Shown: positions 18,337 to 51,535, numbered from the stretch's first letter. The stretch: 64,000 bases of DNA from Candidatus Omnitrophota bacterium (GCA_023247055.1 JAHFHF010000007.1:2186-66185), one strand, 5' to 3'. The notes: a model not told the origin generated them from the sequence alone. Numbers and translations: made by a program.

Positions 18337-21300
18337 TTAAGCGGAGATCGCAACCGCGAACTGATTGAGGAAATCGGCGGCAAGACGCGCGAGTGATTCT
18401 GAAATCACATACAGGCCGTTCTCACGCCGGATGGCCCAGCGAATGCCCGGCGCATCCGGGTCGTAACTCAAGGCCGCAGCCAACGTACCGGCACGTTCAC
18501 GCAGCAAACGAAACATGCGGATATTTTTTTGGGCCGGCCTGCTAAACCCGCTTTCATCCGAATTGGAAGCCCGTGTAAAGGCCACCACACGTCCTTCTTT
18601 CAACCTTGGGCTTAAGGCTTGATAGGCTTCTTCAGCGCTGCTTGCCGTCCAACTTACATTCGTAAAACCCCGAAACAATCGTTTAAACCGCAGCAGGCTT
18701 GAGTGGCTGCTGCGTGCGTTAAAAATCACAAAGCGCACCGCGCTGCGCTGTTTCATCACAATGACAGCCTCACGAATTTGTTCATCCGACAGCGCAGCCA
18801 GATCATCTAAACTCAATAGTGCTGTCTTCGCGGCATGCACGGGCTGGTTCCAAAATGTCAATTGTTGGGGTTGTGTGCCACGCTGGCTGCCCGGCAACCG
18901 GGGATTTAACTCCGCAAGCGATGCACTCGCAGATTTTGAATGTTTCTGCGTTCTGCGCAATTCGGCGCGTACAACCCAAGACCGTTCAAAGCGATTCAAG
19001 AGTTGGGCACTTTGAAAATGGAGGCGCTCAAGATCTGTTTTAATTTGGCTTAATTTTTTAAGATCCTCCGCTGAAAATAGCGCCTGACGCGAGGCCGTTA
19101 AAGCCGCATCGGACAAAGGCCGTGCCACACTCGCAGACGAAAAGAAGGCCTGTTCGTGATACTGATTCAGCGGTGATTTTTCAATCGTCTCGATCACCTG
19201 AATCGTCGCCCATAATTCCATGACTGTGTTCCTCAGCTGATTCCAAGACATATCTCGCCCATGGTCATGCCACGGTTTAAAAATGGCTACCAGCCCTTGA
19301 GAAAGCGTCTTCCAAAACGCAAGATTTTTTTCCTTTTCAGCATACTGTCCCGGCAGCAGTTCTTCGGACATCGTGCGTCTTTCGCGGACAATCAATTCGG
19401 ATGCAGCCGCGAGAATATCGAGCAGGGTATTCTTGGCTTCTTCGGAGGAGAGACGCGGATTTTGCGATGCAAGGCTTTCTTTGACTGTGGTACTTAAAGC
19501 AAACTCATATGGACCGTCCGCACCGGCCGTAGTTTGAAATCCATACTGTTCTAAGAGTTCCTGCGCTTTGGCCGGTGTACCGCCACTGTACTCTGCCAAC
19601 GGACGGATAGAGACCTGCTCACGCACGGCCGCTGCTTGCAAAATACGGCCTTTCAAACGGCGTTCCCTTTCAAAGTCTTTTTTCCACGCGTCATCCGCCG
19701 CTCTTTCATCCTCAAAAAACGCTCTCTGAAGAACGCGCACTTCGGACCGCTGCGCAGGATCACTCTGACCACGCCGGGTTTCTGCATCCACAATGCGAAG
19801 TTGTATTTTTAATAAAGTTCTCGCTTTAAATACGCCGTAGAGGATGCCGGGAATAAGGCCCAGCAATCCCGAAAGATGAGAACCCAGTGGTGCAGGAATC
19901 AGTCCCGCTCGCGCAAGTAGGATGCCAGCCGTTTCAACAATACCCGACGGCATTATAATCAATAGTGCGACGCTAAGCAGAAACATGAACCACCAACGCG
20001 CCCCAAAGCTTTCTCTTAGAAGCTCCCGCTTGGCTTCAAAGGATTCGGCGCTGATCGTGGGTTTCTTCTTCGCAAGAGCAGCATTCCAATGCCCCATTTC
20101 GAACATCGCTTCAAATTCGGTCGCCATATTTAAACCTGAATTCTTAAACTTTGTGACCGATTTTTGAAACTCTTCAAGATAGGCCCAGAGAATCCTGTTA
20201 TATACACCTTCGAAATCGATCTTCTCCGGTTCGGGAGAGGCCGAAGAGGGAGAAACCGTGCGTACTTCGGAGCGCTGGTGACGATAATCCAAAGGTACGT
20301 CGCGGCCCAACTCCATCAGCTGGCCTTTGGCCTGGGCGCGCAATTCCTGAAGGAAGGACTTGGGCAGGCTGTGCTCAACACGCTTGTGACGATAGTAATG
20401 CGCCAAAGGGTAAAGCAGCGCCACGGCGATGAACATACCGCCCAAGGCAATCCCAATATTCGCGAGCCTGAAATTGACCATGGCTTTGCCTGCGATAAAA
20501 ACGGCCGCGGCCGTTATGCCTAGGGTGGGAAGCAGCATCCGTTTTTCAAAAGTTTTTTGCGCTTGGTTGATCCGGTCAAGATTCCGGTTGGCATTATCCA
20601 GCATATCCAGCAGTTCGCTCTCGCGCTTTTCCTGAACGAGCTGCAAGACCGTCCGGCGGATTTCGTCAAACTGGGCTTCCGGGTTCGCCAAGACAGGCAT
20701 GTGCTCCATGGCATCAAAAGCCGGGGGCAAATCCAGCCGGAGCATTTGCGGACTAGCCTGATCATCCTGATGATTCAGCCAATAAGCGTATCCCACAAGA
20801 ACCGCCAGCGCCGCATATCCCGCAACCTGCGCCATCATGGCATACTTAGCGTCAAGGAATTGCAGACATAACGCAATTAAATAAACGAACAAAGCCGCCA
20901 TCATGGCCAGAACAAGACCTGTGGGATAATACTCCTCAAAAAAATCCCAAAACCCAGCCCGGCCGGATTGAATTTTATCCAAGTCTTTCAAGGCTGCTTC
21001 CAAAGAGGCCTTCTGGGTTTTGTCCCGCTCAAGAAGATGTATCCTTTTCCGGCCAAACGCGCTTGTGTTGACGCTCAAACTTTGCTGCACAGCCTGAAGC
21101 GCCAATTCGATTTTATAACGGGCAGTCAAAAAATAACGGTGGTCAAGATCTTGAAGCGCGCTCTTCAGAAGGTCTTTATTACCGCGCTGGGCATAGCTGT
21201 CATAAAAAACGGAAAAAAGCCGGGCTTGGAGGCTGATAAAATAAGGATTCCATTTGAGCCAGCGCCGGCTCAGCGAAGGGTATTCTTTTTGCAAATCTTT

Positions 21301-24300
21301 CCAGGCCTGAAACTGGACAAGCCAGAAAATTTTAGGCACTGGAGCATCCGGCCCGGCCGAGGCGGGCTCGCCGGCCGCATTTTGCTGCTGATGTTCTTCG
21401 GCTTCAACCGCATTTTGAATGGTTTCCAGCAAGCGCGCTAAATCCATTTTCTTCGGATTGGAATTAACGTAAAAAAAATATTTTCTGGAATCTTCACGCG
21501 TCTCGATCTCATGCAGATAAAATCCCGTGCTCCGCCAGCCGGCGACACTCTTCTGCGCGATCCTATCGATAGTTTCTCGGGCCTCATCCGACGCAGCGTC
21601 AGTGTATTCTTCATGCCACATGGCCGTAAACTCGGCATCGTTGAGAGGCCCGAAACGCACCTCGTGCTTGAGCCCATCGTTTTGTTTTAAAGCTTTCAGC
21701 GTCTCGTTGACCCGCCTAAGCAAAATCGCCGTTGTGTCCTGCGTTTCTGTTTGAGACGTCTCTTTCAGCGGATAGCGCGCCTCAAGCCGGCGCCAGGATT
21801 CAAATTCCTCCAGCCAAGCATTGTCGATATTGCGATGCAAAACCGACTTCATATCCTGCAAAATGCCGTTCCAGGGTATCTGAGAATATCGCGCGTCAAC
21901 AAAATAAAGATGTTTAAACTTAGCGTCCCGGAAGCCTGTTGCAGCAGAGGACTCAATGCGTTCATAAAGAGGACTGCGCAGATACGTGGCATTCAGGAAA
22001 CCTTTTTCACGCAACTCCTGATTGAGATGCCTCCCGCTGCTAGCTTGCAAGGGGGCAATTATCTCCTGCCAACGGGGATCTTGCGTAGTCAGAACTGTCA
22101 ATTCATGGAGATAGGGCAGAAAATCCGATTTAATTCCCGCTAAAACACGGTTGACGTCCACCGTAAAGGTCTCGATCTCCGCATGGCTGACGCGAACTTC
22201 GGAACGTCCAGTTCCGAAGTCGTCTGCCTGCACTTCGGAGAGGCTTGGCATAATCCATTTATTTTGTGAAAAATAATAAATATATTGACTAATAAGCATT
22301 CCTACGATATCCTGCCCACTGATCAAACCTTGATGGAGCGCCGCTATGGAAAACAATTCTGATCTCTCAGCCAAATGGGCTTTTGCGGCCAAGAGCCTTA
22401 TGACCTTTGCCCAAATTTTGACAACCGGAGCATTGGCAACAAAGCTTTTTAGTGAGCTCCCAATACCCTGGAGAATGGCCGTCGCCATTGGAGTTTTTTT
22501 GTTGATTATCGTAGCTATCCTGATATATCCTGCCGGTACAAAGGAACCCAATTGATATGGAAATCCCCATTCTTCTTTCTGTGATGGCCATCGGTATTTA
22601 TATCTGGTACCTGATTGATCAACACCAGATGAAAAAACGAAAGCAGTCTCACTAATTCCAAATGTATCCAGAAATTTTAATCGCCGTGATGGTGCCCTTT
22701 TTAGGAGCTTTTGTCTGGTATCTGATTGATCAGAACCGAATGCGAAAACGGAAACAGCCGCATTAATTTTTTTCTTTTTTAGCCCTTCCCGCATTTCTGA
22801 ACGCATGGCTGGCATAGCCGCTTGCTCCTGTAACAACCGTTCTACGGCGGCGGCATAATCCTGCACGGCCTTGGGCACATCCGGATTTTCGATAGGCGAT
22901 TTACTCAGGCTGCCGGCCATGCCGCGTCCACCGGCCTCCTCATAGCCCTGCGCCCTCAAATCTTGCCAGAAAGGCTCCGATAAATTTAAAAAGCGGCCGT
23001 CAGCATCCATAAACGTACGGATTTTGAATAAACGCGCAGGTCTCCCCGATCTCGGCGCAGCCGCCTTGACGGGCGTCGATACCACGATGGCTGAAATGCC
23101 CCTGAGCAAATCGGGCCGTTCCGAGCTCAGATATTGATAGGCCGAGGAACTCCAAACTTCTTTGGCTTCGTCATCAGGCACATAAAAGAAAAGCACGGGT
23201 CCGGCTTTACGCACCGTGCCTTGAGGCAGTCCCGGCACATCGAAACCGCCGCGCTGAATCATTTTTGCAATTACTTCGCGGTTTGTAAAATCACGCTGCG
23301 CGCCCCGGGCAAATAAATCGGCCATTTCCGGATCATCCGCTTGCAGGCGTCCCCTCTGGATGGCTTCATAAAGCCCGGCGGCGGAATAGGTCTTTCCTAG
23401 TTGCAACCCAAAGAACAGCGCGGAGCGGACTTTACGAATACCCTCCTCATAGGCCCATTCACCGGCAACTACTTTTTCTTCGATGGCTAAGAGGGTATTG
23501 TAAAAAATGAGCATGGTGTTCTGAGACTCTGCGTCCTGCGGCATCATTAGGTAGTCATTGAAAAGGGCAGCATTCGATAAAATCGAATGATGCGTCCGGA
23601 GAAATGCCGCATCGCCGGCATGCTCCATCACGAAATGCGAAAGCAGGATATCGGCATCGGCGTGGTCCATCAGCGCAAAAGAACGTTCCTGCAGTTTCTG
23701 AATTAAGGCGGTTTCATGATGCGCATGCAGGTAAAGCAGAAAATCGATCAAAAGCACCGTAGTGCTGATGGAGGCAAGCACGGGAAAATCATAATGATGG
23801 TCGATATGAAAAAGCCCGGGGTTTACTTTTAATCTGCCTAAAAAATCGCGAAACAATGTTTCGCGTTCTGCGGGAGTCAAAACTTGATACGGTTTATCGC
23901 GTAATGAAGCCGGCGTCCGCAGATTCACAATGTTGGATTCTCCCATCAAGGGATTTTTTGGGTTAAAATCCTGGATCCGCAGAATGCGTTGTTGGCCAAT
24001 ATCTCTGTGCTGTTCAAAGTAATCAAAAAGCATTTTAAAAACCCGGTCAGCCTGCGGAATTTTTTTGCGGCTGGCATAGAAGTATTTTGGAGTCAACTCC
24101 ACGCGCGCTGCCGGCGGCAAAATCATACTCAAACGGGCCTGCAACTCATCCAGCGGCAGGTCCGGTTCAGCAGCAAGTTCCTCTAATTGAACAAACATCT
24201 CTCTGGCGAGCCGCCGGACACGCGCCCCTTCCAGCCGGTCCATGTCTCGATGGGCGTGGTCAGCCGCTTCACGAATGCCGGTCCGCAGCATTTCAATTTC

Positions 24301-27300
24301 TTCACGGCTCACGCCAAAAAGCGTTTCAAAGTGCCCCCATTGGACGATTTTTTGCAGCATCTGGGGCCAATAGATTTGGGCCATGCGAAAAATACGGTCG
24401 GCATAGGCCTGATTGACTTCATGCCCTGCGTGAAACGTGTCTTGCATATAACGGAGGCGCGCGACCACGGAACCGCCAAAGTAAGAAAGGATCACTCTCC
24501 GGCGCTGGGCAGGCGTCGTCAGATCATCCGCAATCCTGCGCACAAACCGGCTGACAAAATAATCATGATACGCATCGCTTTCATGCCCAGTGACGTTAAG
24601 CTGCTCGGTCCGCAGCATGCCTCTCCATGCCCCCAGCGAAATATCTCCGTTGGCTTCGGCGCTTAGGCGCCGGTTCGCTTGCTGCTGTGCATAAGCATCC
24701 CGGTAAGTGTCATGCTGCTGAATTTCGGCCATGGGCATCAGGTCGATCAAGACCTGCCAAATCGTCTTTGGCGGCTGTTTACTCCCCCTCAGCCGCGGCA
24801 GCCACTTACGGATCTTTTCGGCCCGCTGCCGGCGCAAACGCCAGCGTTCCACGTATTGGTAAACAATATCCGGGTTCTGGCTTAAAGCTTCACTTAAAAG
24901 CGCGCCCCAAACCACCGATTCATCGACAGCCAAACCCTCCTCCAGTAAAACGCGGCCCGCTTTGACAAAACGCACGTAACGCTGTTTTTCGCGGCCCGCT
25001 TCCAAAAGCACCGCCCGGATCTCCTTCAAAATAGTTTTTTCAAAATGGTCGCCGGCGGAAAGTTTTTCTTCGATAAATTTAAAATCATTTTCAAAGTTCC
25101 GGAGCGCCTGCTTGCGCACCCGCTCCGTAATTCCCAAAATATAATTGTCCAGAATCTGGCGATAGTATTTTTGCTCGTTCTGTTCGGCCATGGTCTGAAA
25201 CCGTTCCAGAAAAAATCGCAAGACTACCCGGACGATGATGACAGACAAAACGAGGTCTATAAGATCCACGCGTACTTTCCAAAATTCAAAAACCGTGAAT
25301 TGTCGAATGACGCTTAAGAAATTATCGAAATTGAGCACATAACGAAAGGCTGCCAAGAAACCGGCAAACATCAGAAACAAAATAGGTATCCCAACCGTGG
25401 ACGCTAAATTCTCGACCGCTTCGGTGCTCATCAGCGTATTGCTTCGAAGCCAGCGGCGCTGCCAAGAGTGTGGCAGGATGGCGTTGGCATAGCCATGTTT
25501 GACAAAGTCCGGCACATGCACGTCGCCGCGCAGGTATTTTTTAATGAGCGTCTCGGCCATGTCCTGGCCCAAGCGCAGCATCCGCTCATGTTCTTTGACC
25601 GTGAATGCGTTTTTTTGCGCCGGCAGATCAAAAGACGGCACTCTCCAGGCTTCGGTCGTTAAATTTTGTTCCAAAATATGCGGCCGGACAATGCCATCGA
25701 TAAAAAAGCGCCGCGAGACCACCGGATCATAAAATTTCATCTGCACCAGCGATCCCTGCGGACCGGTCAAATGCTCCTTAGAATCCACAAAATCACGGCG
25801 GATCTGGCCCCGCAGATTGACCCGGTAATACTTGCGCCATTCCCCGGATTCTTCATAGGCGCGCAGCGTATTGGCAATTTGCCGCATCATGGCGGTTTCA
25901 AACTCCAAGAGTTCTTTTGGCGTTAATTGGGCCACATAATCATCATAACGATCCGCATTGAAATTGAGACGCGATTGTCCGGCTTTCAGAGAAGGGTCCG
26001 GCTTTGCGGTTTTTTGCCGCAGCAGGCGCTGAAACCACGGCGTATTTTTCATCCTAGTTTTATAGGACTGCCGCGCGCCATAGCGCAAGACCAGCGGGCT
26101 GATCGGCACGTCTGTTTCCGCGGCGGCAGGGCTGCGCATTTCAGATCGCGCAGTCGTTTCCGGCACAAACTGACCTTCGGAAACGAAAACGGGGTGCGGA
26201 AAATGGCTCCCGATATAACCGCCGCCCGGAATTGTCTCTGCGGTAATTTCGAGGGTTCCGTCTTTAACTTTGAAAATATTTCTGGTGCCGATGAGCGTTT
26301 CGACTGCCACCCGGCTGTTTTTTGAAAGATCAAAAACTCTTGGTGTTCTGGACACCTGGTCCTGGTAAAACCGGCGCGCGCTGGTAATCGGCTGCAGATA
26401 AATTTCAGAAGGCTTGTCCGGATTTTGAAAAAAAACATCCGGTCCTCCGCCATTCCCCATGATGACGACTCCGCCGTTTTCAAACATGGCCGGCTTAATG
26501 ACGGCCTTGCCGCCCGTGCGTTTGGAATCAAGCCGCCGCGTGCGCCGAAAGACACCGGCGGGGAACGCCGTAATGCCAAGGCCCGGAATCACAGAAGCAG
26601 AGGCCGGCGGCTCTGGCTCTGCTTTGTTCGCGGAGCGGAAATCCGCATGATAAAGCCCTCCGAGCGCATCGATTCCGTCCGGATGGCTGATCTGAAAACG
26701 ACCGTCCGATAGCGCTTCGAAACGTATCTTTTGGAGAATAACCGGCTGGGGCGTCCATAAATCCATAACGGCCAGCGGTGCCCGCAAACCTTCCCATTTT
26801 TCGCCGGCTGTCATATGAAAGAAAAAAATGAAACGCGGATTGCTGGTAAAACGCCTAATCATATAATCCGTGCCTCCATTTTCAATGAAAAGCCCGCTGG
26901 GGAAACGCGCTGTCTCAAAAACCCCGCGCCCGAATATAATTTCTTTTTTATTTCCGGAAATTTGTACTGCTCCGGAAATTTGCACGGCGTCAGCGCCGAA
27001 TTCCGGCACAGGCGCCCGAAAATCACTCCAGTTCCTGCCTTTCACGTGCACCGCCACAGGCTGGAATAAAGCGGCCGCGCGATAATCCACATACCATTCG
27101 CCTTCCAAATTGCCGGGATAGAATTGATTGCCCAGCCGGGCAAGAATTCTGCCGGAGGGCAGGCGGATGACGACCTGGCGTGTCTGGTCACCAGGCGCCA
27201 GCGGCGGCTCTTCGCCTTTAAAAGCGGCGCCATAGTGTGCCAGCATCTTCCGGAGTTTGGCTACGGTGGCTGGGTCAACCTCGGATTCTTGCAGCAAGGT

Positions 27301-30300: not shown

Positions 30301-33300
30301 ATTGGTTTGGACCGGGTCCAAAGCTTCCAGGGCGCTTAAAATTTCAGGGGCCTCTAATTTTTCACGAAAATAACGCAGCCCGGCCAGCAAAGCGGCGGCG
30401 GGCTCCTTGGGATAAAGCGCATCCGCATGCAGTGAAACCAGAAGCTGCAGCAGAGCCTGTTGTTTTGGCGTGGAACGGGCTTTTTTCAGCAAATACGGAT
30501 CAACCCAAAAGGTTTTTCCTTTCAGGCTCACCCCCGATAAAAGAGGCTCGGGGCTGATGCGGAATTGAAAGCCGGCGACCGCGAATTTTTCAAGCAGGCT
30601 GCCATCCGTGATCAGCTTGGCGGATAGCGGACGGCCCAGGTTTTCGTTCTGCTCCGGCTCATTTTGAGACGGCCTCGTTTTAGGACGGCCCCGGTGTTTG
30701 GCTTGGGCAGGTTCAGCAGCTTCCTGGCCGAGATATTCGCGAAATTGGCGCAAAACAGCTTCGACATCGCGCTCGCGATGAGTCTGGAAATATTCGAGTT
30801 TCTGGATTAAAGGCGTAAGATATTTGTCTTCCGGCTGCCGGGTTAAAATTTCGCGGGCTTTTTGATGCAGGCTCTGAATCAGTTCATCCGAAGGTTCTTG
30901 GCGCAATAGCGCCAAAAATTCTCTCTTGAGACGGAGCAAAGCCTGATCCGCGGGTGTTTTTTGCTTTGGCCGCAAGACTCTGTCGGCCAACGGAATTTTC
31001 GTCTCCGACCAGGTCTTCAGAACATCGGAAACACGAACTCTCGGGCCGGTCATTTCCGCAGCCGGTGCCACAGGTTTCCGGCGCGCAAGCTGGTTCGTGG
31101 CCCGGAAATCCCGCTGGATTTCAAGCCCGTCGGGATCAAGTTTTTTCATATCTTGCAGCGAAAAGACCTTATGCTTTTTCTTGCGCGCCAAAAGAAAAGT
31201 CGCGTTTTCTACCATCTGCCGGGTCAAAGCATCCAGTTCGGGAATTTCCCCTAGCGAAACTTTGTCATTTAAAATTTCGAAATCAAATGTTTCACTGAGA
31301 AATTTCTTGGCCTTGTCCGTAAAAACGCCGTTATGGTCCCAAAGCAAAAGCAAGCCGCCTTCCGTCACCGATTGGGCAGCCTGAACCAAGGCCCAGTTTT
31401 TCATGCTCACGCCATGCTTGTTTCGGATTCTTCCGGGCGGTTTGGCAATTTCAGAGGACGAAACAAAGTCAAAATGATTTTGCGGCAGCGCATCCTGATA
31501 CAAATCGTAATCACTTTGGCCGGCTGGCTGTTGCGGAAAATGCTGCTCAAGCTGCCAGGCCCGGCCCAAACCGCGGGCCTGAGCGGAACTGTCGACTTCA
31601 AAGTAGCTGAAATTGCGGACGGGAATCTTTTGGCGTGCGAAAAGCGCTTCCATCTGCGCCAAAACACGCAGATCCACCGAAGGGCCGGAAGCTAAAAAGG
31701 CCCAGCGCGGCGCCGGCGCGCCCTGCGCAGTCCGGTTTAAATCGATCGTCCCCTTTTCGTGCAAATGTAAAAGATGGCCATAAAGCGCTTCGGTCGCGGG
31801 TGTTGCTGCCACATCGTTAATCGCGGAAGCGTAAAGCGCCATGCCCTGGTCCCACAAAGCCTGGGCTTGGTCATTTTTGCCTTCATACAACCGGCTGTAA
31901 ACTTGCGCAAGCCAATGACGCACTTCCTGAGCAATGGTTTTACGTTTGGCGCGGCGCTTTTCGCGATCCTCAAGCTGTTTGATATTGCGGCGCATGTGGT
32001 CCATGCGGAGTTTGCCGCGGATAATCTGATCAAACAGCGATTCTTTGTGTTTTAAAATATCTAAAATGTCATCATCGACCGTATCGGCCACGACAAACGC
32101 ATACACCCGCACTTCTTTATCCTGGCCAATGCGGTAGACGCGGCCGATGGCCTGGTCCAGCTTGGCATTGGTGTAGGGCAGGTCCGTCAGTAAAACATGG
32201 TTGGCCTTGAGCGTATGCCCTTCGCCGCTCAGATCAATCGTGCTGAGAAAAACTTTTTGATCGAGGTCCTTGTTAAACCGGGCAATCACTCCTTCGCGAA
32301 GTTTGGGATCTTTATGCGTCTTACTGTCCAGATAAGCGACGGCCTCCGCCCCCATTTCTTTGGCCAGCATGTCTTTCAGGCGCTGAACCACCTTGCGGTA
32401 ACGGCTAAAAATCACAGCCCTTTCTCCGGAAGCGGCAATGGCCTTTATTTTTTCAATTACCGCGCGGTACTTGGCCGGCGAATCATGCCGCACCGGTTCC
32501 GAAGCGCGCAACAGTTCCAGCACAGGCCCACGCAAAAGCTCAAGACTTTCATAATATTCACGTTCATCGCGGCCTGATTTGGATACTAACAAGGACTCAT
32601 CCATTGAGGCCCTGACCCGCTCAAGCAACTCTTCATGGGTCCGGTCCGCGTCAGGCATCAACGGTTTGAGGAGACGCAGATCGATCAACGTTTTGACTTT
32701 TCGCAGCAGTGCTTCAAACTTTTTAGTCTTGGCGGTTCGGAGATCTTTTTCAGAGACCGCCAAAAGCTCCAGATCAATCAGAATTTGTTTCTGCTTTTCA
32801 AAATGCGCAAACGTCTCCATCTGCCTTTGATTGCCGAGCGCGTATTGATGATCTTCTTCTTCCAAAACAGCCTTCTGGGCTGGGTCGATTGTCACAGGAA
32901 TTATTTCAAGCGGGTGTTTTTTGGGAAGGTATCCCATGACTTGCGTAATGGTGCGGCGCAGAAAATATTTCTGATTGAGTTCAATATTGAGCTGCGCCAG
33001 ATGCAGCGGATCTTCGGTCACTTCCGCGCTAAAGCTGTCAAAATCCGGAAAGCGGGCGGGGTCTGCGGCATTCAACGCCACAAACAAATCGCCCACGCCA
33101 TTGACCACCGTCGTGCCCGAAAGATAAATCGCCGCCGCCTTATCTTTTTTAAGCCGGATAAACTGCTTGGATCTTTGGGTCTCGGGATTGCGCAGCCAGT
33201 GGATTTCATCGCCGATGATAAAATCCGGCGCCCAGGTATTGAGGGCATCCACCAAGGCTCCGCCGGTCTTGGCCGCGCCCAGGGCCTGGTAGCTCATGAG

Positions 33301-36300
33301 AATAAAACGCACACCTTCGTTTTGGACCTGTTTTAATTTTGCGAGGCGGCCGCTGCTGGGTCCGTCAATCACAGCCACTTTTTGATCTTGCCCGAGCCAC
33401 TTCGTAATTTCATTCTGCCAATTGGCCAAAAGATGATTCGGCGCCATGATCAAAACTTGTTTGGCGCCCGCATCCTGCGCTGCGATCAGCGCCTGAATCG
33501 TTTTACCCACGCCCATATCGTCGGCCAGAATGACACGGCCCGCATTTTCATGCCTGGCGAAATAAACTCCGGCGATCTGATGCAGCATCAATTCCGACGG
33601 ACTGATCGGGCCGCCGTTTCCGTTGCCATTGGTGTAATGCACATACTGCTGATAATTTTTCTGCTGCAGCGCCGCATAATAATTTTTAATCTGCTGATAA
33701 ATGGCCTGTAACTCTGCCGCCGCACCGGGGGGAGCCGTCTTAAACCAGGCTGCCGCTATTTGAAGGGCCTTTTGTGCTGTGGTTTTTTCAGGATCTTTGG
33801 GCAGCTTGAGCGCCGCCTCCAGCAGGGCATTGTAAATGCGCGTGATGATTTGGCGTTTGATCACTTCCCGGATCTCCTGCTGCACTTCGCTTGAAAATGA
33901 AGCTGCGGCAGGAGTATGCCAATATTGGCTAAGGGCCTTTTGCATTTTTTCGCCCATCAGTGTTTCGTGGCTAAAGGGCTGGATGTGATTATTGCTTTCG
34001 TAATCGAGAAACTTTTCGCTGATTAGGGCCAGCAGCGATTTCACCGGAAAATCCGGGTGCCGTTTCGCAAAAAGATAAAAGAGCGCGGCCTGGCCCTGAT
34101 CGGTATTGAAAAGATGCATCCAGGAATCCATGTCCATCTCTTCGGCGATTTGATTAAAAGACTGCCGCTGGCCGGCATTGATATGTTTCTCTAAATCGAG
34201 GCGCTGAGCGGCTTCTTCCTGGCCTTTGTAGGCAATTTTGTTTTTACTGAGTAAAAATTCGAGCGTCGAAACCGCAGAACCCTGCTTCTGACGCAGTTCG
34301 TCGTAATAACGATAAAGCGTATCAAGCCCGTAAGGCTTGGCCGCTTGGCTTAGCCGCAAGAGCGGCGTTTGCCTGAAAATCCGCTCCGCCTCGGCGCGGT
34401 CCAGCCGCATCCACTGATCGAGTGTCAATCCGGCGGATTGAAGTAAAAGCTGTACCAAAAAGCGGATCTGTGAAGGACTGCGCTTAGCCCAATCCACTTT
34501 TTGCGGATCCGTCAGCCAGGGGTCTGCGGCCCCTGCGGCCTCTTGGTGGCGCATCTCAGAGCGCGCAAATTTCGGAGTTAGAAGTTTGAAGTTGGAGGTT
34601 GGAAGATTCGAGCGGTCGGAAAATTCGGGATGAAATCTATTTTCTTTTTTACTTCCAACTTCCAACGTCCAACTTCCAACTTTTTGGCGCATCTCAGAGC
34701 GCTGCAGGGGCCGGGCCCCTTTTGCTTTTCTCTTGGGGGCGGGCTTGAAAATGATTTCTAATTCCCATCGCTGCAGATCAGGCACACCGGATAAAACGGC
34801 CAGCCGTTCCTGCGCACTCGCCCGGGCGTATTCTTCCTTGAGTAAAAATTCAGCCAGCTTGAGCGCATTCTCACGCGAAATGGTTGGCCGCACTTTATGG
34901 GTCTTGGTTGTCTTCCCTGTAAACCACCAGAAGACTGTCCAGACATTCACGCCGACAGCATCCACGATGGGTCTATAAGAAACAGGCGATTTGCCTCGGC
35001 TGGGATATTTGGCTGCCGCCACACGAGCGGCATTTTGCAGAAAATGTTTCTTAAACTGACGCACCTGTTTGCGCCGCGCCTGGGTCCCCGCACGATCATC
35101 CAGATGACCGCGAATAAACCATTTCCCGGGAACTTTGATTAAAGTCTGACGCTGTGTTTCCGAAAGAACGACTTCGTCATTGCGAGGCTCCCGCTGCTTT
35201 TTGGCGGGCGGCGAAGCAATCTTCAGCCCGGAATTTGCCGCAGTCTTTGCGGCGCCTTGTAAGGCATTTCCCCTTTGGGGCGGCGCGCGGTCTTTGCTAG
35301 CCGTTTTAGGCGATGCCGTTTTTTTCTTTTTCCCCGCCTCATAAGGAAAAAACACTTCAAGCTGTGCCGGCGTTAAATCAGGATTGCCGGCCATCCGCGC
35401 CAAAAGCTTATGACTTGAATCGTGCGGATAAGTACTCTTCAGTAAAAATTCAGAGGCCAACAAGGCATTTTCCCTGGAAATGATCCGTCGCTTGATCCAG
35501 TGCGTGATCATGCCCGCATGCCCGCGCCCTCGCGTTTTTACCAGATGCGGCGAGACATAGTCTGCCAGATTTTGGAGTATGACTTTATTTGTCCTTTTTT
35601 GCAGCAAAAGCATTGTTTCCAAATTATCAAAAAAGCTATCTCGAAGTTTGGCCGTGTCCGAAAATCCTCGGACTTGCCGCAATGTTTTCCACACTTCAAG
35701 CCCTTCAAGCGCCGGCGCTACAGAGCGCATCTCAGACCTAGCCCGAGCATCATCCGAAGCTGGCCTTCGGCGTATTTCGCTTCGCATGGGGTTCACGATT
35801 CGGGCAGTATCGAACACTTTATTTTTTAAATTAAAATTAAATAAATATTGATTTAAAATAAATACTCGGATATTATGTTTTATCCAAATAAAAATACGGG
35901 CGATCGCATGAAGATAGGGACTCTTCGAGATGAAAGACAAGACACGCCGGTATGAAACCGGTAAAATGCTGATTGATTTATCAAAATATTTTGCGACGGC
36001 AATTGCCGCCGGTACTATTGCCAGCGGCCGATTTGATTGGGGAGTCGTCATTACCGGGCTAGTGCTGGCATTTCTAAGCTGGGCTATCGGATTTGTAACC
36101 ATCCCGGAGGATAAGGAGAGCAAATGAGTAATTTTGAAGTCTTTGCCATTGGCTTCGTTGTTTTCGTCTCGATGGTCGGATTGATTGTGGCGATTAATCA
36201 CCGCTTGAGTGAGCGGCAGCGTCCCCATCCGCCCCACGGCACTTAAGCTGGGGATGCGACGAATTTCTGAGCGCTGCGCTTGAAGAATTTGGCCGTAACG

Positions 36301-39300
36301 CATCAGAGCCGCCCGCATCACAGGCTCAGCCGTTGTACGGATAAGCTCGAGATACTCCAGACGCGCTTGAAAAAGCCGCTCCAAAATTTCAATTTTGCTT
36401 TCCTCAGACTGCCGGCCAAATGAACTCCAAAGATTATCCCAATCCCGAAGCCGGTGCTCCACTTGAGCGGGGGCTTGATGAATAACCTCACTGCCGCCCT
36501 CGCCCCATAAAATCATTTCAGGGCGCGAGAGCTCCGAATGTAAAATGATTTCAAAAAACTCTTTTGACAGCACCTCCAATTTCGCAGACAGAAACCGTGC
36601 TTGGCCATCCCGCCGGATATCCTCGAGAAAAAGACCAGCACCTTCAATTTCATGATCCAAACCGCCAAGAAACCACGCCGCGCCCCGCAGGCTTGCCTGC
36701 TGTAAAGTTTCGTCGTCGTTTTCTTTAAAAAAAACATCGGCTCCGAGCGCCCAAAGCCGGCCCCCGCTATTGGACGTATTCAGTTCTGAAAGTACTGTCA
36801 TCGGATCTTGAACCAATTCCGGAAACATCCCGCTCCAAGGCGCGGGCAGATCGAACAGTTGTGAAAATTTTTGATAAAAATTCAACGCCTCCGGCCGCGT
36901 ATGAGGCCAAAATCTTTCCGCCCAGATTTTAGCCCAGCTGCTGAAACCATCCAGATACACGCCGGCCAAATTAACCGGCTCTGAACCCGGCAGCCATTCT
37001 TGTTTCATGCCCGGCCGCGGATCTCGAATAAAAACGCCCGTGGTCTTTAACGCCTCGACTTCATTCGTTTGGCGATAGCGGGCATATACTTCTATCGCCA
37101 ACGCGTTGAAAGGATAAGTCATGAAATCAGAAACGTATTGACCATAGGCCGCATTCAATCGTTCTGCCTGATGATCCCAAACTTCAGAACCTGTGCGATT
37201 GATAAATTCCAAAGCAGAATCAGAAAAAAGCGAGAACTGCCGGAAGTCCTTGGCGTGCGTCAAATCAAGCTGTCTCATTTTGGCCGTCGCTGCTGCGATC
37301 GGCGGTGTATGGAATAAAATTCCAACAAACCAACTTAAAATCTCGTTTATAATGGTCGTTATAGCGTTGTTTATTCTCGGTATTATCTTAGCCGACAAAC
37401 TAGACAACAAAGGACGGTAACTCCATGTTTGGTCTTGTAACCATCTTTCTCCTATTTTCCACGGTCGCTCTATGGATTGCATTGGAGAGGTATTTTTTAA
37501 ATCGCCGAAAGCATTAAGCCTGCTCGGCTGAATTTGCCTCAATTCTGACCGAGCCTCTCCCCCAATCTGATCCCATGTTTCAGTCACAGTAATCAAACGC
37601 ATAAAAAAATCTTCGAGTGCTTGGGGAGTGCGTCCAAAACTTGCCGGCGTGAAAATAAGCTTTTTCGGAGCCGTCGCTTCATGCCAGAGTTGTTGAAGTG
37701 TCATAGCGCTATCATCTGATTTTTTTTCTGCGGCTTGGATGAGATAACTGGCAAGCGGATACTGGGTAAGCAAAAAGTCGTACGCATGGTGAGAATCCCA
37801 CATCCCATCATCCAAATGCGCAATGCGGTTCTTAAATTCTTCAGGTGTCATCTTGTGGCCAAACATTAAAAACGAGTAAAGCCGGATAAACATCTCAAAA
37901 TTCGCAAAAGGCCCATAGTTTTCAGGTTCTGGAATCGCCCGTTCATCAAGCTCCCATTTCAAAGTTTCCATAATACGTTCAGGTGCGGTCTTCTTAGCAA
38001 GTTCCGCATAAAGCATCTGGCTCAAACTCAACGCATGCGCCATTTGTTTTACAAACTTCGGGCTCTGAAAATTCCATGTACGTTCTCCATCTGCAAGTTT
38101 CCACACTGCGGGATTCTGCCCCCGAACCTCCGATCGCCCAACAGCATCCCGATTCTTTGGTTCAACACCCTTGGCTCTTGTCTCAAGCAGCTGTGCTTTG
38201 AGGCTGCCTTGACCAGCCATGGTTCTTAGGCTAGTCTTCGAAAAGGGAGAAATATTCCATGCAAAAAGTTGCCGTAACACTACTACCCAAGCAAGCTGAG
38301 ATTTTGATTGAACAGCTTGTTCAAAATCTGGATTTTGAAGCCAAATACCGTTTGGTCCAGAAACTACAGCGTGAAATGCGCCGCGCCCGCTGGGAACCCC
38401 TGGTTCTGAAAATGCGGCGGCGTTTTGCCTCAAAACCCCTTTCTTCCCGTCAAATCCGGCGGCTCTGTGAACAGGTCCGCCAAGAACGGTTTGAGCGTGC
38501 GGGTCGTCGTTGACACCAACGTTTTTATTGCCGCCCTTCTGCAAGGGAATACTCCCCGAAAAGTCTACGATTTCCCCCCCCCTCACTTCCGAGCGATAAG
38601 ATTCCGCGTTTCCAAGAAGAGATTTGAGTGTTTTGAATTTCCACGGGCCAAGACGCGCCTGATTGATCGTGAGCGTTGCTTCCACATCCAGCCATTCGGG
38701 CGGAATATGCATCAAGAAGCCGGCGTCGTCGCCTTTGAAAAGAACCTGCTGTTTCATTTCAAGCCAGGGAATGTCTTTGAGCGATTGATAATGACTGCGG
38801 ACTTCTTCAGGCAGTTTTGCACCCAGGCCCAGCGAAGGATCAAGCGCCCAGGTTTTCTTTTCGTCTATCGAATCCGATTCGATCAAATGTGTGCTAGGCA
38901 CACGAAAGATCAGAACAATATCATTTTTTTCAGGCCCTCGTTTTTCAACGCTTTCCTGATCCCGGTAAAAAACAGTCCTCCAGGGCAATTGGTAAAGGCC
39001 GTACCAGGCAATCAAATCGATGGTTTTAAGGCCTTTGCTCGAGTCATGTATAACGTGATAGACAAGGCTGTCTCCGGTCTCTGCTGCTTTTTTGTAATTC
39101 GATCCTTCAGCATGGACCTCATAGGCTGTGGTTTTACCACCGCTGCGCACGATCGAAGCCGCGGCCGGAATCGAGCGATATAAATGCAAAGAAGCTTCGG
39201 GAAGCGTGCGTTCCAAGCCGCCGGGCTGCCAATCATGGGTTTTGATGACTCTCAGCTTATCGCCCGTGTTAAATCCATTGGGCAGCTCGTACAGCTCGAG

Positions 39301-42201
39301 CGCATCATCGGCCTGGATCCTCTCAAAAACCCAGTCTCTCACGCTATCGAGAGTCCCGATAAAAGGGCCTTCTCTTTGCAACGACGTCTGCGGATTCAAA
39401 CGTTCCAGCAGAGTTTCGAGCAGGCGGACACGCATCCGCAAATAATCAGCCAGCGCCGGATTGTCCTCTTCAAAAAGATACGCATAATCCGCAAGCTCAT
39501 GCGTTTCTGCGATATAATCATGCACAAACTCGTCTTCATCTTCAGCTACTTCCAAACGCTGCTCGTCGTCTAAAAGAACCCGGTCGAATTTTTGAACGGC
39601 GGGAACTATTTTCCGGATTCTCTGAATCTGCTGTTCGTAGGTCAGCGCTTCCCATTCCTCACCCGTAACGCCGCCTATCTTCAGAAGACGCTCACTTAAT
39701 TTTGCAAACTTGTTTCGATTGTTCAAAACACGTTGAATCATACCCAGCTTATCCGCAAGTTCTCGATCCTGACGCTCGCTTGCGGGCAGCCGGATTAAAT
39801 AAACAGTTCCCATAATCGCCAACCCGCCAAACAAGGCTGACATAAGCCATAAAATGGGTTGACCTGCAATGGCTGCACCGGCCAAACCTGCAGTCATCAC
39901 CCAGGCCAGCACCGTGCCGGCATAAAACTCTCTTATTTTTTTCCGGTGCTCTCTGGCCTTTGCACTTAGTGCTTCTTCACTGGCATTCTGGCCGCGCATC
40001 TCGGATCGAGGCTCCGCCGAGTTCACAGAAGTGCCGGACCTCCGCGTCCGGCGCATCTCAGAACGCAAAGACATGCCCGTCACAACGGCGGCTTCATGCG
40101 CCGCTGCGCTGGATTTGTTGACAGCAGGTTTCCCGATAACGATCGCGTCAAACCCGTTTTCAGGAACGCGGCCGTAAAGACGCGTAGATTCCCAAAAGCT
40201 GCTCCAATAGCGCTCCGGCCTCTTCACTTGTTCACGCGCAATCAGTTCATCCAGCACAGTTCTGTCGTCCAGCCGGGTTAAAGGGCTCATCTCCGGCATG
40301 CGTTTGAACATTTTCTGCAAATCATCGCTCGCCATCGCCAGCACGTGATAGCTGTGATAGGGCTTGAGGATTTGCCGCAGTAAAGCCTGGCCTCTTCCAC
40401 GGATGGGCTCTGCTGTATCCGGAAATCGCGGATAGAACGCCGTGATCCGGATCAGCTTGGCCTCATCATAAACACGCGCGCTGATTTTCCGGTCTTGATT
40501 GAGTTGATGGCCGGACCTATCGAAAACATCCGCCAAAACTTCTGTGTACAGAAATTTATTTTCACTTTCAGACGACCCTGCCGCATAAACCGGAGTTCTT
40601 TGAATGCGGACCGTAAAACCTTCCAGCCCCGGCATGTCCTGCACTGTTTCGATCTGGGGTAAACTGCCTTTCGCCTCCATTCGCATTTCAGACATGGCGA
40701 GGGCCCGCGAACGCGCAGACGGTTCTTTAAGTTTTAGGGCTGCTTCGCGCGCCGAGCGCACAAGCGTCATGCCCGGCGGCAAGGTTTGCATGACTTCACC
40801 GAGAGTCCTGATTTCATGCGCGATTGATAAATCGCCCGCCTGTTGGAGTTCTACGACACTGATGGGGCGCGATAGACGCGGCAGCTTTCCAGCCTCGAAC
40901 GGATTGATGCCGCCGGCCATGATCTGGCGGTAATAGTCTTTGTGTTTCTTCTCAATTCTCGAGATGACCGGCGAAATGACCGCGTAACTGACTCCGGCTT
41001 CATTCAGCATTTCGCGGATACGGCCGGCATGAAAACCGCCGTAGACCAGCACCGCTGTTTTTTCATCCGCAGATTCTAAAAAATCCGCGAGAGCCAGTTT
41101 CACTTGGTCGTCCCGTTTAAGGGCTGTCTCATAAAACTCAAAAGCGCTGCGGATACTTTTTTCCCAGCGCCTAGAAAGTACCACGGTCCGGCGGCCATGG
41201 CGCGCCACAAATTCCGCGAGGGCCTGCATTCGCAGTCCGGCCAGTGTGGTTTTAATGTGCGCGTATTCTTCGGCCGTCATCTCGATCTTGTTCAGGCGCT
41301 TGAGCATCTGCAGGTCGTTGTAGAACTTGAAAAGATTGCGGCTGTCGTCTGTTTTCAAAAAATGAACCGCAAGGTCTTTTTCCAGCTGATCCATTTCTTG
41401 CCACAGGCTGCTTGCATTGTGCTTTTTAACTTCTTCAATCGCCGCGGCCTGTTTACTGTCGAGCGCGCGCAAAACCCCGGCCAACCCCGGGTAGCTGACG
41501 GCAAAAGCCGGCGCGCCCATGACGGGAATGGCTAGACGCGCGGTCTCGCGCGCATAAAACGCAAAGTCGGTACGCTGGTTTTCAAAATCTTGTTTGAGGC
41601 GCAGGAACTGCTGCAGGGGTTTGGGCAAAAGCTGCGGCACAAGGGTCTTGAGTTCTTTTTCGGCGCTGCGAAGTTCAGCGTCAATCATGGCCTGGACGGA
41701 TGCGGCTTGGCGGTACCAGGCCGCGCTTTCAAAATGTTCTCGGATATTGTCGGCGCCGATCAGATGGAAGTCTTTTTGACGGTTGATGTGCGCATATTCG
41801 GCCGCGCCGATTTTCAGCTTATCGAGCAGAAAATACGAAACACGCCGTTTGACTTGGGCATCTTGAATCGTTCCGAAAAGTTTATCGGTAGGCACAGGCC
41901 CTTCATAGCCTTCTTCAAAAACCGTGCGCACGCCGTGGTTTTCCACCAAATGCGTAATGAGAGCGGCAATGTTTTCCTGGGCCTCGAGCGAGTCGTGGGC
42001 ATCCTGGATGAAGAGGACGGTCTTGGCAGAAAGGCCGCGCTGAAAAGTTTCAACGGAGGCTAGGCGGGGCGGAATGGAAAACGGCGTTTCGATTTTAACC
42101 GGTGCTGCGCCCGCAGAGGCAGGCACACTGAGACACACACTTAAAAACAATGCTATAAGTTTAAAGAAAGCACGCAAAAAACGGCTGTTCGTTTTAAACA
42201 C
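18337..42201 (-). CDS. giant multidomain membrane-anchored protein (7954 aa) with an SNF2-family ATPase core and RNAP alpha-CTD-like HhH domains
   Basis: Uninterrupted 23,865-nt ORF. GTG start at 42201..42199 with AAAGGA ten nt upstream. N-terminal signal anchor, at least six internal TM segments, SNF2 motifs (GVGKT, DEIH, RVYRIGQ), the recurring RSEMR pentapeptide, and internal tandem repeats. TAA stop at 18337. Confidence 0.85.
   Translation of the reverse strand: [7954 protein letters not shown]
27240..27640 (-). other. two helix-hairpin-helix segments resembling the RNA polymerase alpha C-terminal domain, within the giant protein
   Basis: [51 protein letters not shown] follows the alpha-CTD pattern (LxLSVRxxNxL ... 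G.L...S..ELL...FG.KSL.E). A second, weaker copy ([34 protein letters not shown]) follows. Confidence 0.5.
30157..30250. repeat. family A palindromic element, copy 3, in-frame inside the giant ORF
   Basis: GTCATTGCGAGACACC...GTCGAAGCAATCTCGGACGC...CCTCGCAATGACAAAA. Translated in the giant frame as [35 protein letters not shown]. Confidence 0.75.
32000..33570 (-). other. SNF2-family helicase/ATPase core (DEXDc plus HELICc) within the giant protein
   Basis: Motif I [11 protein letters not shown] at about 33498..33521. Motif [11 protein letters not shown] at about 33188..33217. Helicase C-terminal motif [17 protein letters not shown] at about 32100..32160. Confidence 0.85.
34549..34702. repeat. 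in-frame inverted-repeat element inside the giant ORF, bounded by 16-nt direct repeats GCGCATCTCAGAGCGC
   Basis: DR at 34549..34564 and 34687..34702. Between them GTTAGAAGTTTGAAGTTGGAGGTTGGAAG ... CTTCCAACTTCCAACGTCCAACTTCCAAC (inverted arms of TTGGAAG 7-mers). One DR plus insert is 138 nt, which is 46 codons. Confidence 0.7.
35848..35876 (+). promoter_or_regulatory. consensus-like sigma70 promoter on the plus strand inside an AT-rich island of the giant ORF
   Basis: TTGATT (35848..35853), 17 nt, TATTAT (35871..35876). Local GC is about 20 percent over about 90 nt, against about 57 percent in the surroundings. Confidence 0.4.
40790..42080 (-). other. N-terminal extracytoplasmic domain of the giant protein, possibly TraB/GumN (TIKI)-like
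   Basis: After the signal anchor: [21 protein letters not shown]...[11 protein letters not shown]...[11 protein letters not shown]. This loosely resembles the GxxH ... E ... VVVGxxH arrangement of the TraB/PrgY/GumN family. Weak, pattern-level only. Confidence 0.25.
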
Positions 42202-47503: not shown

Positions 47504-47623
47504 GTGGCATACCGCTTGCACTGATACGTATGCATTTTTGTACCTGCCGCAATTTAAGGTCTGCTTTTGATACCTCGGGGCAAGGCAAAATTTTGGAACG
47601 GTTTATCCGCTTTTAATCTTTAA

Positions 47624-49309
<1,686 letters not shown>

Positions 49310-49338
49310 GATCACTCAAACATTTAAATTTTTAATTC

Positions 49339-49891: not shown

Positions 49892-51535
<1,644 letters not shown>

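Follow-up and report, generated by a model that had tools for sequence, protein, structure and literature searches.

A strict R-S-E-Φ-R pentapeptide marks the module junctions of giant capped proteins in Omnitrophota and is a probable proteolytic processing site

The window analysed here, a stretch of 64,000 nucleotides (nt) from Candidatus Omnitrophota bacterium (GCA_023247055.1 JAHFHF010000007.1:2186-66185), carries a giant open reading frame (ORF; 18337..42201, minus strand) whose product of 7,954 amino acids (aa) is a member of an Omnitrophota family built from an N-terminal cap domain, cargo modules and a C-terminal cap domain. In this family, we found the joints of unrelated enzyme modules to be marked by a pentapeptide, R-S-E-Φ-R (Φ = L, V, M, A, I or T), that is selected at the protein level. 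Its sequence context suggests a short linear motif that is read on the protein, and probably a site at which the giant precursor undergoes site-specific proteolytic processing.

The giant protein contains 15 copies of RSE[MVIL]R (seven RSEMR, five RSEVR, two RSEIR and one RSELR), whereas 2,000 residue shuffles of the same protein averaged 0.056 copies, with at most 2 in any shuffle. A first-pass annotation of the window, made from the sequence alone, had counted RSEMR or RSEVR about 15 times and put the chance expectation for one specific pentamer at essentially zero; its observation of the peptide is confirmed, and all 12 peptide contexts that it quoted are present. The motif is all-or-none in the giant protein, with no K for R, no T for S and no D for E, and each relaxation of a single position gives one more match. 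In the six-frame translation of the whole window, the sole further match falls in a frame that is non-coding and antisense to the giant gene, and the motif is absent from the 25 neighbouring genes.

The sites, all encoded on the minus strand, begin with two RSEMR copies at aa 713 (40051..40065) and aa 732 (39994..40008), the second of which stands 14 aa past the first as a tandem site with a short spacer. RSEVR at aa 1203 (38581..38595) and aa 1356 (38122..38136) and RSELR at aa 1551 (37537..37551) follow. Two RSEIR copies, at aa 1977 (36259..36273) and aa 2140 (35770..35784), form the upstream and downstream borders of a spacer of 158 aa, and after a further spacer of 10 aa comes RSEMR at aa 2155 (35725..35739), which aligns approximately to a site of the homolog P0002. 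The RSEMR copies at aa 2501 (34687..34701) and aa 2547 (34549..34563) lie upstream and downstream of a hairpin insert. The remaining copies are RSEMR at aa 5352 (26134..26148) and aa 6467 (22789..22803) and RSEVR at aa 6666 (22192..22206), aa 7310 (20260..20274) and aa 7485 (19735..19749). The sites quoted in the first-pass annotation are real, but RSELR at aa 1551 and the copy at 19735..19749, which lies outside the range that it gave, had been missed.

Sites are positionally conserved between members that share only 31-41% identity. The window site at aa 2547 and RSELR at aa 704 of P0002, where the SNF2 module starts, align exactly, and the site at aa 7485 aligns with RSEVR at aa 2254 of P0001, where the high-scoring segment pair (HSP) of the BLAST comparison begins exactly at the site. 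Judging from such alignments, two further sequences of the giant protein are degenerate copies of family-conserved sites. The first, MSEMR at aa 503-507 (40681..40695, minus strand), occupies the positionally conserved first RSExR site of the family, an alignment column that is R/E/R in at least 90% of members, and falls in a segment (residues 502-520) with a predicted local distance difference test score (pLDDT) below 50 in the AlphaFold2 (AF2) model. The second, RAELR at aa 7745 (18955..18969, minus strand), is a variant last junction site 209 aa before the C-terminus. Its counterparts in the alignments are RSEMR at aa 2520 of P0001 and, in the family, the conserved site that precedes the C-domain, and it lies in a disordered linker (AF2 pLDDT ~50).

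A homology search with aa 1-2600 of the giant protein returned 193 proteins, of which the best 120 (P0001-P0120) were analysed. These 120 listed homologs are 1,400-4,500 aa long and all align to the first ~450 residues of the query only; the homolog set was picked via the N-domain. Source names, where given, were almost all Omnitrophota or Omnitrophica. A full HMMER pass over 1.84 billion cluster representatives gave 2,905 clusters at E ≤ 1e-10 and 5,958 at E ≤ 1e-3, counted at 50% identity. A scan of one genome per species gave 172 loci, with several paralogs per genome; among the best 79 of them, the taxon-titled records were almost all Omnitrophota metagenome-assembled genomes (MAGs) and the others were titled 'uncultured bacterium'. 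The members are composed of a signal anchor, an N-domain of ~450 aa, variable cargo modules and a C-domain of ~165 aa; 101 of 121 family proteins have this C-terminal domain, there about 200 aa long, in common. The cargo found in the homologs includes SecA, sigma-70, Nudix, radical S-adenosylmethionine (SAM), methyltransferase, epimerase, phosphoenolpyruvate-utiliser, ROK kinase, SNF2, kinase and HATPase modules. Neither the N-domain nor the C-domain received an annotation from Pfam, NCBIfam or PDB sequence profiles, and on these sequence comparisons the family appears to be a 'capped' scaffold with inserted cargo, specific to Omnitrophota and previously unannotated. Compact members of ~700-1,000 aa also exist. 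Three short proteins, P0160 (696 aa), P0164 (946 aa) and P0161 (1,266 aa), have the N-cap and the C-terminal family tail with no R-x-E-Φ-R, and they may represent the cargo-free ancestral scaffold.

The pentapeptide recurs throughout this family. RSExR was found 551 times in the 120 listed homologs, with up to 20 copies per protein, and was the top over-represented gapped pentamer outside the N-domain (551 observed versus 7.4 expected, in 115 of 121 proteins). In the larger set of 179 family proteins, RSE[LVMAITS]R occurred 780 times, or 1.6 per thousand residues. The logo of 554 sites reached 3.6-3.9 bits at R, S, E and R, with flanks at or below 0.35 bits, and its fourth position was aliphatic or small (L 0.32, V 0.23, M 0.20, A 0.12, I 0.08, T 0.04). 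Seventy-five family ORFs of other genomes held 326 sites, compared with 24 in 477 flanking ORFs, a class that was defined mechanically. The flanking ORFs that hold these 24 sites all measure 462-3,238 aa, and most are truncated at the end of a contig; they are probably neighbouring family members. It should be noted that two listed homologs with the NCBI label 'Verrucomicrobiae bacterium' (P0028 and P0061) use RAELR, RGELR and RTELR and not RSExR; either they come from misclassified MAGs, or the family extends beyond Omnitrophota with a different form of the motif.

The first-pass annotation had held that the peptide is 'written by' a conserved 16-nt motif, and this did not survive a comparison of codons. 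In the window the exact 16-mer GCGCATCTCAGAGCGC is found only at 34549 and 34687, both given correctly in that annotation, which placed two other copies (40038 and 39985) about 10 nt off. In a search allowing up to 2 mismatches, near-copies were added at 40051 (1 mismatch) and 26134 (2 mismatches), so that only 4 of the 15 sites carry it. Arg is written as CGT, CGA, CGC, CGG and AGG across the 15 sites, Ser as TCT, TCC, TCG, TCA and AGC, and Glu by both of its codons; the apparent nucleotide motif arises because the RSEMR subset combines the single Met codon with a favoured Arg codon. The 75 family ORFs of other genomes draw on every one of the six codons for Arg and the six for Ser. The 32 RSELR sites of genome JAUYMS are 29 distinct 15-mers that use all six Leu codons, and the 26 sites of genome CAYSSX are 26 distinct 15-mers. 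The conservation of the motif is thus at the amino-acid level, and synonymous variation is free.

These results make it extremely improbable that the peptide is a by-product of a DNA- or RNA-level element, be it a mobile-element target or footprint, a recombination hotspot for module shuffling, or an mRNA processing signal. Such an origin would agree with the two identical 16-mers within a 23-nt direct repeat that bracket the hairpin insert at 34549-34702, which resemble a small inserted element with its target-site duplication, and with a mild codon bias at the motif. In loci L001-L079, CGC and CGT together make up 76% of the codons at the first Arg versus 41% in the background, and Ser is TCN in 93% of sites and AGY in 7%, versus 31% AGY in the background; the last Arg follows background codon usage. 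However, the AGY deficit is expected under long-term purifying selection on Ser, since a change from TCN to AGY needs two steps, every synonymous codon family is used, and the window has a single copy of the hairpin element and the 79 related loci have none. The suggestion in the first-pass annotation that the sites are targets or footprints of a mobile element can therefore account for a single locus at best, namely the hairpin insert and its direct repeat of 16-23 nt, and not for hundreds of codon-divergent sites. Its further suggestion of module-junction linkers made by recombination-driven shuffling was right in placing the motif at module junctions; recombination through the motif itself is implausible, because a degenerate stretch of 15 nt is too short and too variable for homologous recombination.

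Several lines of evidence place the motif between folded units. Hydrophobic residues make up 25.6% of the motif flanks versus 33.1% at random positions (p = 5e-53). The first site, just past the N-domain, and the last site, ~45 residues before the folded C-domain, have AF2 pLDDT values of ~50 or below. In comparisons between family members, 33% of BLAST HSP ends fall within 10 aa of a motif, versus 4.9% with randomised motif positions, and only 38 motifs are internal to HSPs versus 176 at random. In the two members that were scanned with Pfam (P0004 and P0045), every domain lies between sites and none contains one; the SecA, sigma-70, kinase, methyltransferase and HATPase domains never extend across a motif. 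A complete SecA-like unit spans residues 2434-3320, and a HATPase domain ends four residues before a site. The spacing between motifs is bimodal, with spacers of 10-60 aa and modules of 150-700 aa, and its median of 343 aa is about the size of one protein. Disordered linkers, HSP ends, domain placement and spacing all favour the explanation listed first in the first-pass annotation, namely a processing site that cuts a polyprotein into modules. Two hallmarks of a polyprotein are seen here: several independent modules in one ORF, and a short recurring motif at their junctions in flexible linkers.

The same observations bear on whether the pentapeptide is simply inherited, as a structural or catalytic element of a repeated fold or as what is left of a duplicated linker, in either case without a reader of its own. 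RSELR is known from the literature as a conserved motif of polysaccharide lyase family 7 (PL7), whose alginate lyases carry R(S/T/N)E(L/V)R as an active-site motif in a beta-jelly-roll domain that also has QIH and YFKAGxYxQ regions; some sites are clearly inherited with their module, and in one subfamily a copy sits at the modelled terminal helix of the C-domain. However, the flanks of the motif are not conserved, which leaves no repeated fold around it, and neither PL7 nor any other repeat was matched in Pfam; on these two grounds an identity with the PL7 active-site motif was rejected. The modules on either side of the sites are unrelated. Moreover, the region aa 737-1976 (window 36274-39993), which comprises 1,240 residues in four motif-bounded modules, gave no detectable homolog among 5.8 billion proteins. 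We therefore consider simple inheritance very unlikely, and descent also fails to account for the genome-specific forms of the motif described below. The junction motif itself is kept amid the orphan sequence of aa 737-1976.

Two spacers between tandem copies of the motif have contents of an unusual kind. The first is an imperfect hairpin insert of 122 nt (34565..34686, minus strand), in frame, which encodes a 41-aa spacer between two identical RSEMR-coding repeats. The inverted repeats within it show 87-92% complementarity, the 23-nt direct repeats on either side have a spacing of 138 nt, and its RNA fold has an energy of -57.8 kcal/mol (z = -7.4). The whole unit (34542-34702) of 138 nt consists of the 122-nt hairpin of inverted GTTGGAAG-like heptads and one 16-23-nt direct-repeat copy that encodes RSEMR. 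It has no counterpart at the orthologous junction of P0002, and among the window and the 79 related loci its repeat GTTGGAAGTTGGA turns up in this one insert alone. The unit has the appearance of a small insertion that brought a long target duplication with it, or of a product of slippage. A mobile-element origin of the motif in general was rejected, given that GTTGGAAGTTGGA is restricted to one insert and the sites are codon-degenerate. The first-pass annotation had reported the motif on both sides of an inverted-repeat insert and next to an AT-rich island; the copies do flank the hairpin at 34565-34686, and one copy lies 34 nt from the island.

That island belongs to the second case, an apparent antisense mini-operon (35818-36246, plus strand) nested in the giant gene within the 158-codon spacer between the two RSEIR sites. 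It is headed by an AT-rich promoter-like stretch, TTGATT-17-TATTAT (35848-35876, plus strand). Its first ORF (35930..36127, plus strand) encodes a membrane protein of 65 aa that matches Pfam DUF6722 (E = 2e-4, 21.9 bits, below the gathering score, with nearly the full profile covered), and its second (36124..36246, plus strand) encodes a membrane peptide of 40 aa, joined to the first by an ATGA overlap and preceded by a GGAGG ribosome-binding site. The frame of the giant gene is open throughout this region. A splitting of the giant ORF into two genes at the AT-rich island was considered and rejected, given the open frame, the single N-cap and single C-cap, and RSEIR at both borders of the island. 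The translation of a hairpin, or of an antisense promoter and two small genes, cannot be a functional protein, and both are tolerated in frame exactly between two copies of the motif. If the motif is cleaved, cuts on either side would set such spacers free, to be discarded.

The form of the motif differs between genomes and is shared within them. In JAUYMS, all 32 sites in five paralogs read RSELR, and these paralogs have only the N-domain in common, at 40-46% identity, which makes them as divergent as proteins compared between genomes. CAYSSX is likewise all-L at the fourth position, CAYGIT uses mostly RSEAR, JACKFM uses RTE(M/L)R, and JBAYGD is relaxed at the second position. The same residue at position 4 was found in 48% of comparisons between sites of different loci within a genome versus 19.5% between genomes, and none of 300 label permutations reached 48%. 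Genome-specific dialects across ancient paralogs imply a single recognition factor per genome. This pattern argues for one reader per genome, as neither descent nor folding constraints nor nucleotide homogenisation can produce it.

We propose that this reader is a dedicated site-specific endopeptidase that would recognise and cut the motif, releasing modules from the precursor as in the maturation of polyproteins. The residue that follows the second Arg is enriched 1.7-2.8 fold for S, T, N and A, whereas Pro stands at only 0.43 fold and residues that are aromatic or bulky and hydrophobic at 0-0.54 fold; immediately ahead of the first Arg, Pro is enriched about 2 fold. A preference for small residues together with avoidance of Pro is the pattern expected of a scissile bond at this position and is not typical of a docking site. 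The bond would thus most likely lie after the second Arg, with R-S-E-Φ-R as P5-P1 and a small P1'. The one specificity per genome could reside in the N-domain of the family, acting in cis or in trans, or in a separate trans-acting protease.

One alternative keeps the reader and dispenses with the cut. The pentapeptide would then be a docking or modification site in uncleaved linkers, read by one genome-level factor, and the giant protein would remain whole, a 'beads-on-a-string' scaffold anchored in the membrane. The reader might be a kinase or some other enzyme that modifies the invariant Ser or Arg, a chaperone, a component of the translocon or of quality control, or an assembly factor. Strictness, linker location and dialects are explained equally well in this way. 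In addition, Ser is near-invariant and yet Ala is its commonest replacement (RAExR occurs 102 times in 121 family proteins), which fits a modifiable residue that can be switched off, and long stretches and whole members without the motif are readily accommodated. Against it, besides the residues that follow the second Arg, tandem sites around short spacers or junk read more naturally as the ends of excised peptides, and module sizes match those of free-standing proteins. Furthermore, SecA, sigma-70 and units resembling the RNA polymerase alpha C-terminal domain normally act as free subunits of other complexes. We regard an uncleaved linker motif as unlikely, though a good deal less so than simple inheritance, and proteolytic processing remains our preferred explanation.

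The N-domain (aa ~40-480; 40762..42084, minus strand) is a putative hydrolase of the Tiki/TraB/erythromycin-esterase/ChaN kind and, from its model and conservation, a candidate for the reader or protease of the motif. It follows a signal peptide or signal anchor (aa 1-33; 42103..42201, minus strand), predicted by eye and from hydropathy as a basic N-terminus followed by a hydrophobic helix; aa 8-26 form the hydropathy peak and AF2 places a helix at aa 7-30. All signal and transmembrane assignments given here are based on hydropathy. At an overall identity of ~40%, at least 177 of 179 sequences keep residues D67, H69, Q75, E97, E135, R141, Y357, R363 and H391; the exceptions are a single sequence with Ser in place of R141 and others that are truncated at the column concerned. 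H69, E97 and H391 are invariant in all 178 complete sequences, and they may be the equivalents of the catalytic residues of Ere and Tiki. The AF2 model of the N-domain (pLDDT 84.7) found its best Foldseek matches in PDB in EreC (6xcq/6xcs), BcR135 (3b55/2rad) and ChaN (2g5g), all of the Tiki/TraB/Ere/ChaN superfamily. The N-domain has an invariant His (in DAH), an invariant Glu 28 residues further on and a second invariant His in GGFH, a pattern that recalls the His/Glu/His constellation and the paired GxxH motifs of the superfamily; a large helical insertion sets it apart. Tiki and TraB/PrgY members of the superfamily act on peptides or proteins. We know of no superfamily member reported to cut RSEΦR or to head a polyprotein.

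Several points weigh against cleavage, or against the N-domain as its agent. The Foldseek match to the superfamily, whose fold is two-lobed and alpha/beta, is weak (E = 7e-3, template modelling score 0.17-0.22), and the N-domain had no sequence match in Pfam, NCBIfam or PDB; Erythro_esteras, TraB_PrgY_gumN and Cofac_haem_bdg were not hit even at E ≤ 10, and a profile search against PDB sequences was negative. The superfamily includes esterases and a haem binder as well as proteases. Following a signal peptide, the N-domain may sit across the membrane from many of the sites. A Pfam scan of the whole giant protein matched SNF2, Helicase_C and the RpoA C-terminal domain only and recognised no protease domain, and no conserved neighbouring protease gene was seen across the family loci. 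In about ten members, the motif stands 14-22 aa from the C-terminus at the modelled terminal helix of the C-domain and not in a linker, and some family members are motif-free. Given these members and a site-free stretch of 2,800 aa in the giant protein, cleavage would not be obligatory between all modules. The case for cleavage is drawn from sequence throughout, and a reader that is no protease, such as a docking protein, a Ser kinase or a factor in translocation or quality control, would give the same statistics. An ORF of 429 aa upstream of the giant gene was also considered as a linked protease and rejected, as it encodes an unannotated multi-pass membrane protein that recurs beside just one further locus of the family, where its orientation differs.

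The opposite end of the giant protein is formed by the C-domain (aa ~7789-7954; 18340..18837, minus strand), a folded Rossmann-like alpha/beta domain with the tail ...V-A-I-S-A-COOH. Its AF2 pLDDT is ~95, it has no invariant polar residues, and a fold search against PDB gave only generic Rossmann-like matches, none of them specific. The C-terminal tail is conserved in the family as ...[V/A/I]-[I/F/V]-[A/S]-x-[A/S]-A-COOH, with Ala as the last residue in 98 of 100 proteins and Ala or Ser at position -2 in 98. This tail resembles the non-polar C-terminal tags that are read by PDZ-type or AAA+ proteases. Family alignments place one N-domain at the start and one C-domain at the end of the giant ORF.

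Cysteine is nearly absent from the giant protein, with 2 Cys in 7,954 residues (0.025%), at aa 23 and aa 7112, both inside predicted transmembrane helices. The family mean is 0.12%, versus 1.04% in the 25 neighbouring genes, and radical-SAM cargo modules keep the CxxxCxxC cluster motif and have few other cysteines. Such family-wide avoidance suggests that the proteins pass through an oxidising compartment or travel unfolded, or else that some thiol chemistry is being avoided. A wider picture, which we put forward tentatively and think doubtful as a whole, is that of a cellular polyprotein system, in which many enzymes would be made as cysteine-free giants, headed by a self-contained, site-specific Tiki/Ere-like protease as N-cap and closed by an [AS]-x-[AS]-A C-cap, which would be exported or threaded through the membrane and cut at R-S-E-Φ-R into dozens of free proteins, possibly effectors delivered to the host or prey of ultra-small episymbionts.

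The closest known systems appear to be the multifunctional autoprocessing repeats-in-toxin (MARTX) toxins and viral polyproteins, with which the giants seem to share a logic and not the protease, motif, repeats or biology. MARTX toxins such as Vibrio RtxA are likewise very large, with conserved N- and C-terminal regions around variable, unrelated enzymatic modules. Their modules are joined by unstructured linkers with site-specific processing and are mosaic between strains; the giants are alike in linkers and mosaicism, and for them cleavage is proposed from sequence. MARTX toxins have an internal cysteine protease domain (Peptidase C80), activated by inositol hexakisphosphate and cutting after Leu, and glycine-rich A/B/C repeats. 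The Pfam scan of the whole giant protein found neither Peptidase C80 nor repeats-in-toxin (RTX) repeats. The giants differ further in the lack of Cys outside transmembrane helices in the giant protein, in the strict R-S-E-Φ-R, in a housekeeping type of cargo (SecA, sigma-70, radical SAM, Nudix), and in belonging to a phylum, free-living or episymbiotic, whose genomes encode several ancient paralogs each.

Viral polyproteins, including those processed by picornavirus 3C, flavivirus NS2B-NS3, potyvirus NIa and coronavirus Mpro, are similar in their short strict junction motif, small P1' and unconserved linkers, and also in dialects of the motif that co-vary with the genome encoding the reader. 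The viral protease is usually part of the polyprotein. In contrast, the giants are encoded by a cellular chromosomal gene near gatA/gatB, groEL and alr, have thousands of members with a variable number of modules, and are cleaved only by our inference. The PEXEL motif of Plasmodium (RxLxE/Q/D) and the RxLR motif of oomycetes offer a further parallel in being strict Arg-containing pentapeptides that lack flanking conservation, involve one dedicated enzyme and belong to host-dependent organisms. PEXEL and RxLR occur once per protein, just past the signal peptide, in eukaryotic parasites, where they license export, whereas R-S-E-Φ-R recurs up to 20 times per protein at module junctions.

Outside its caps, the giant protein contains two recognisable cargo modules. 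An SNF2-type helicase (aa 2874-3359; 32125..33582, minus strand; Pfam PF00176 at 7e-28 and PF00271 at 7e-14) sits within the motif-free segment of 2,800 aa (aa 2552-5351), as does a module similar to the C-terminal domain of the RNA polymerase alpha subunit (aa ~4852-4912; 27466..27648, minus strand; PF03118 at 1e-12). The module at aa ~2160-2500 (window 34700-35720) has an internal duplication, in which '...ISRENAL(L/K)(A/L)(S/A)EFLLK...' appears twice, and both copies match one region of P0002. The chromosomal neighbours in the window include gatA, gatB, two groEL paralogs, alr and coaX. The two GroEL/Cpn60 paralogs are nearly adjacent (47651-49309 and 49913-51535, plus strand), and a long antisense ORF (47603..49315) overlaps the first of them. 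An Rfam scan of the window gave a single tRNA and no other known RNA element.

Giant proteins of Omnitrophota have been described before, with a similar multi-enzyme architecture, signal peptides, transmembrane helices and a speculated cleavage into smaller products, as far as the searched passages of those reports tell. West-Roberts et al. 2023 (bioRxiv 10.1101/2023.11.21.568195) speculated on cleavage by C39 or S8 domains and stated that the cleavage points are unknown, which blocks dissection in silico; every cleavage passage that a keyword search returned from this report is about C39/S8 peptidase domains. A preprint of June 2026 (10.64898/2026.06.07.730766), with 176 complete Omnitrophota genomes, gives a catalogue of 'multi-enzyme metabolic cluster' giants, and the words 'motif', 'cleav', 'linker' and 'cysteine' occur nowhere in its searched text. 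Keyword searches of the two reports returned no passage on a junction motif, an Ere/Tiki-like N-cap or a conserved C-cap. In full-text literature searches with the peptide strings and with Omnitrophota polyprotein or cleavage terms, no description of the motif was found; the hits were acronyms and PL7 lyases only.

Whether the giant proteins of Omnitrophota work as a single chain or as cut pieces is an openly stated question, which the junction pentapeptide makes testable. The motif predicts exact neo-termini for proteomics and gives rational boundaries for the structure prediction and annotation of thousands of orphan modules. It also defines a reporter substrate for a protease hunt, for which the dialects RSELR, RSEAR and RTEMR are natural specificity controls. 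If the sites are not cleaved, the motif would still point to a genome-level reader that acts on hundreds of sites per genome. If they are, cellular prokaryotes would have their first polyprotein strategy on a large scale, and a new sequence-specific protease could be obtained from it. And should the wider system of capped, exported giants hold true, bacteria would have a so far unknown way of expressing genes and delivering proteins, in which a new protease specificity co-evolves with each genome.

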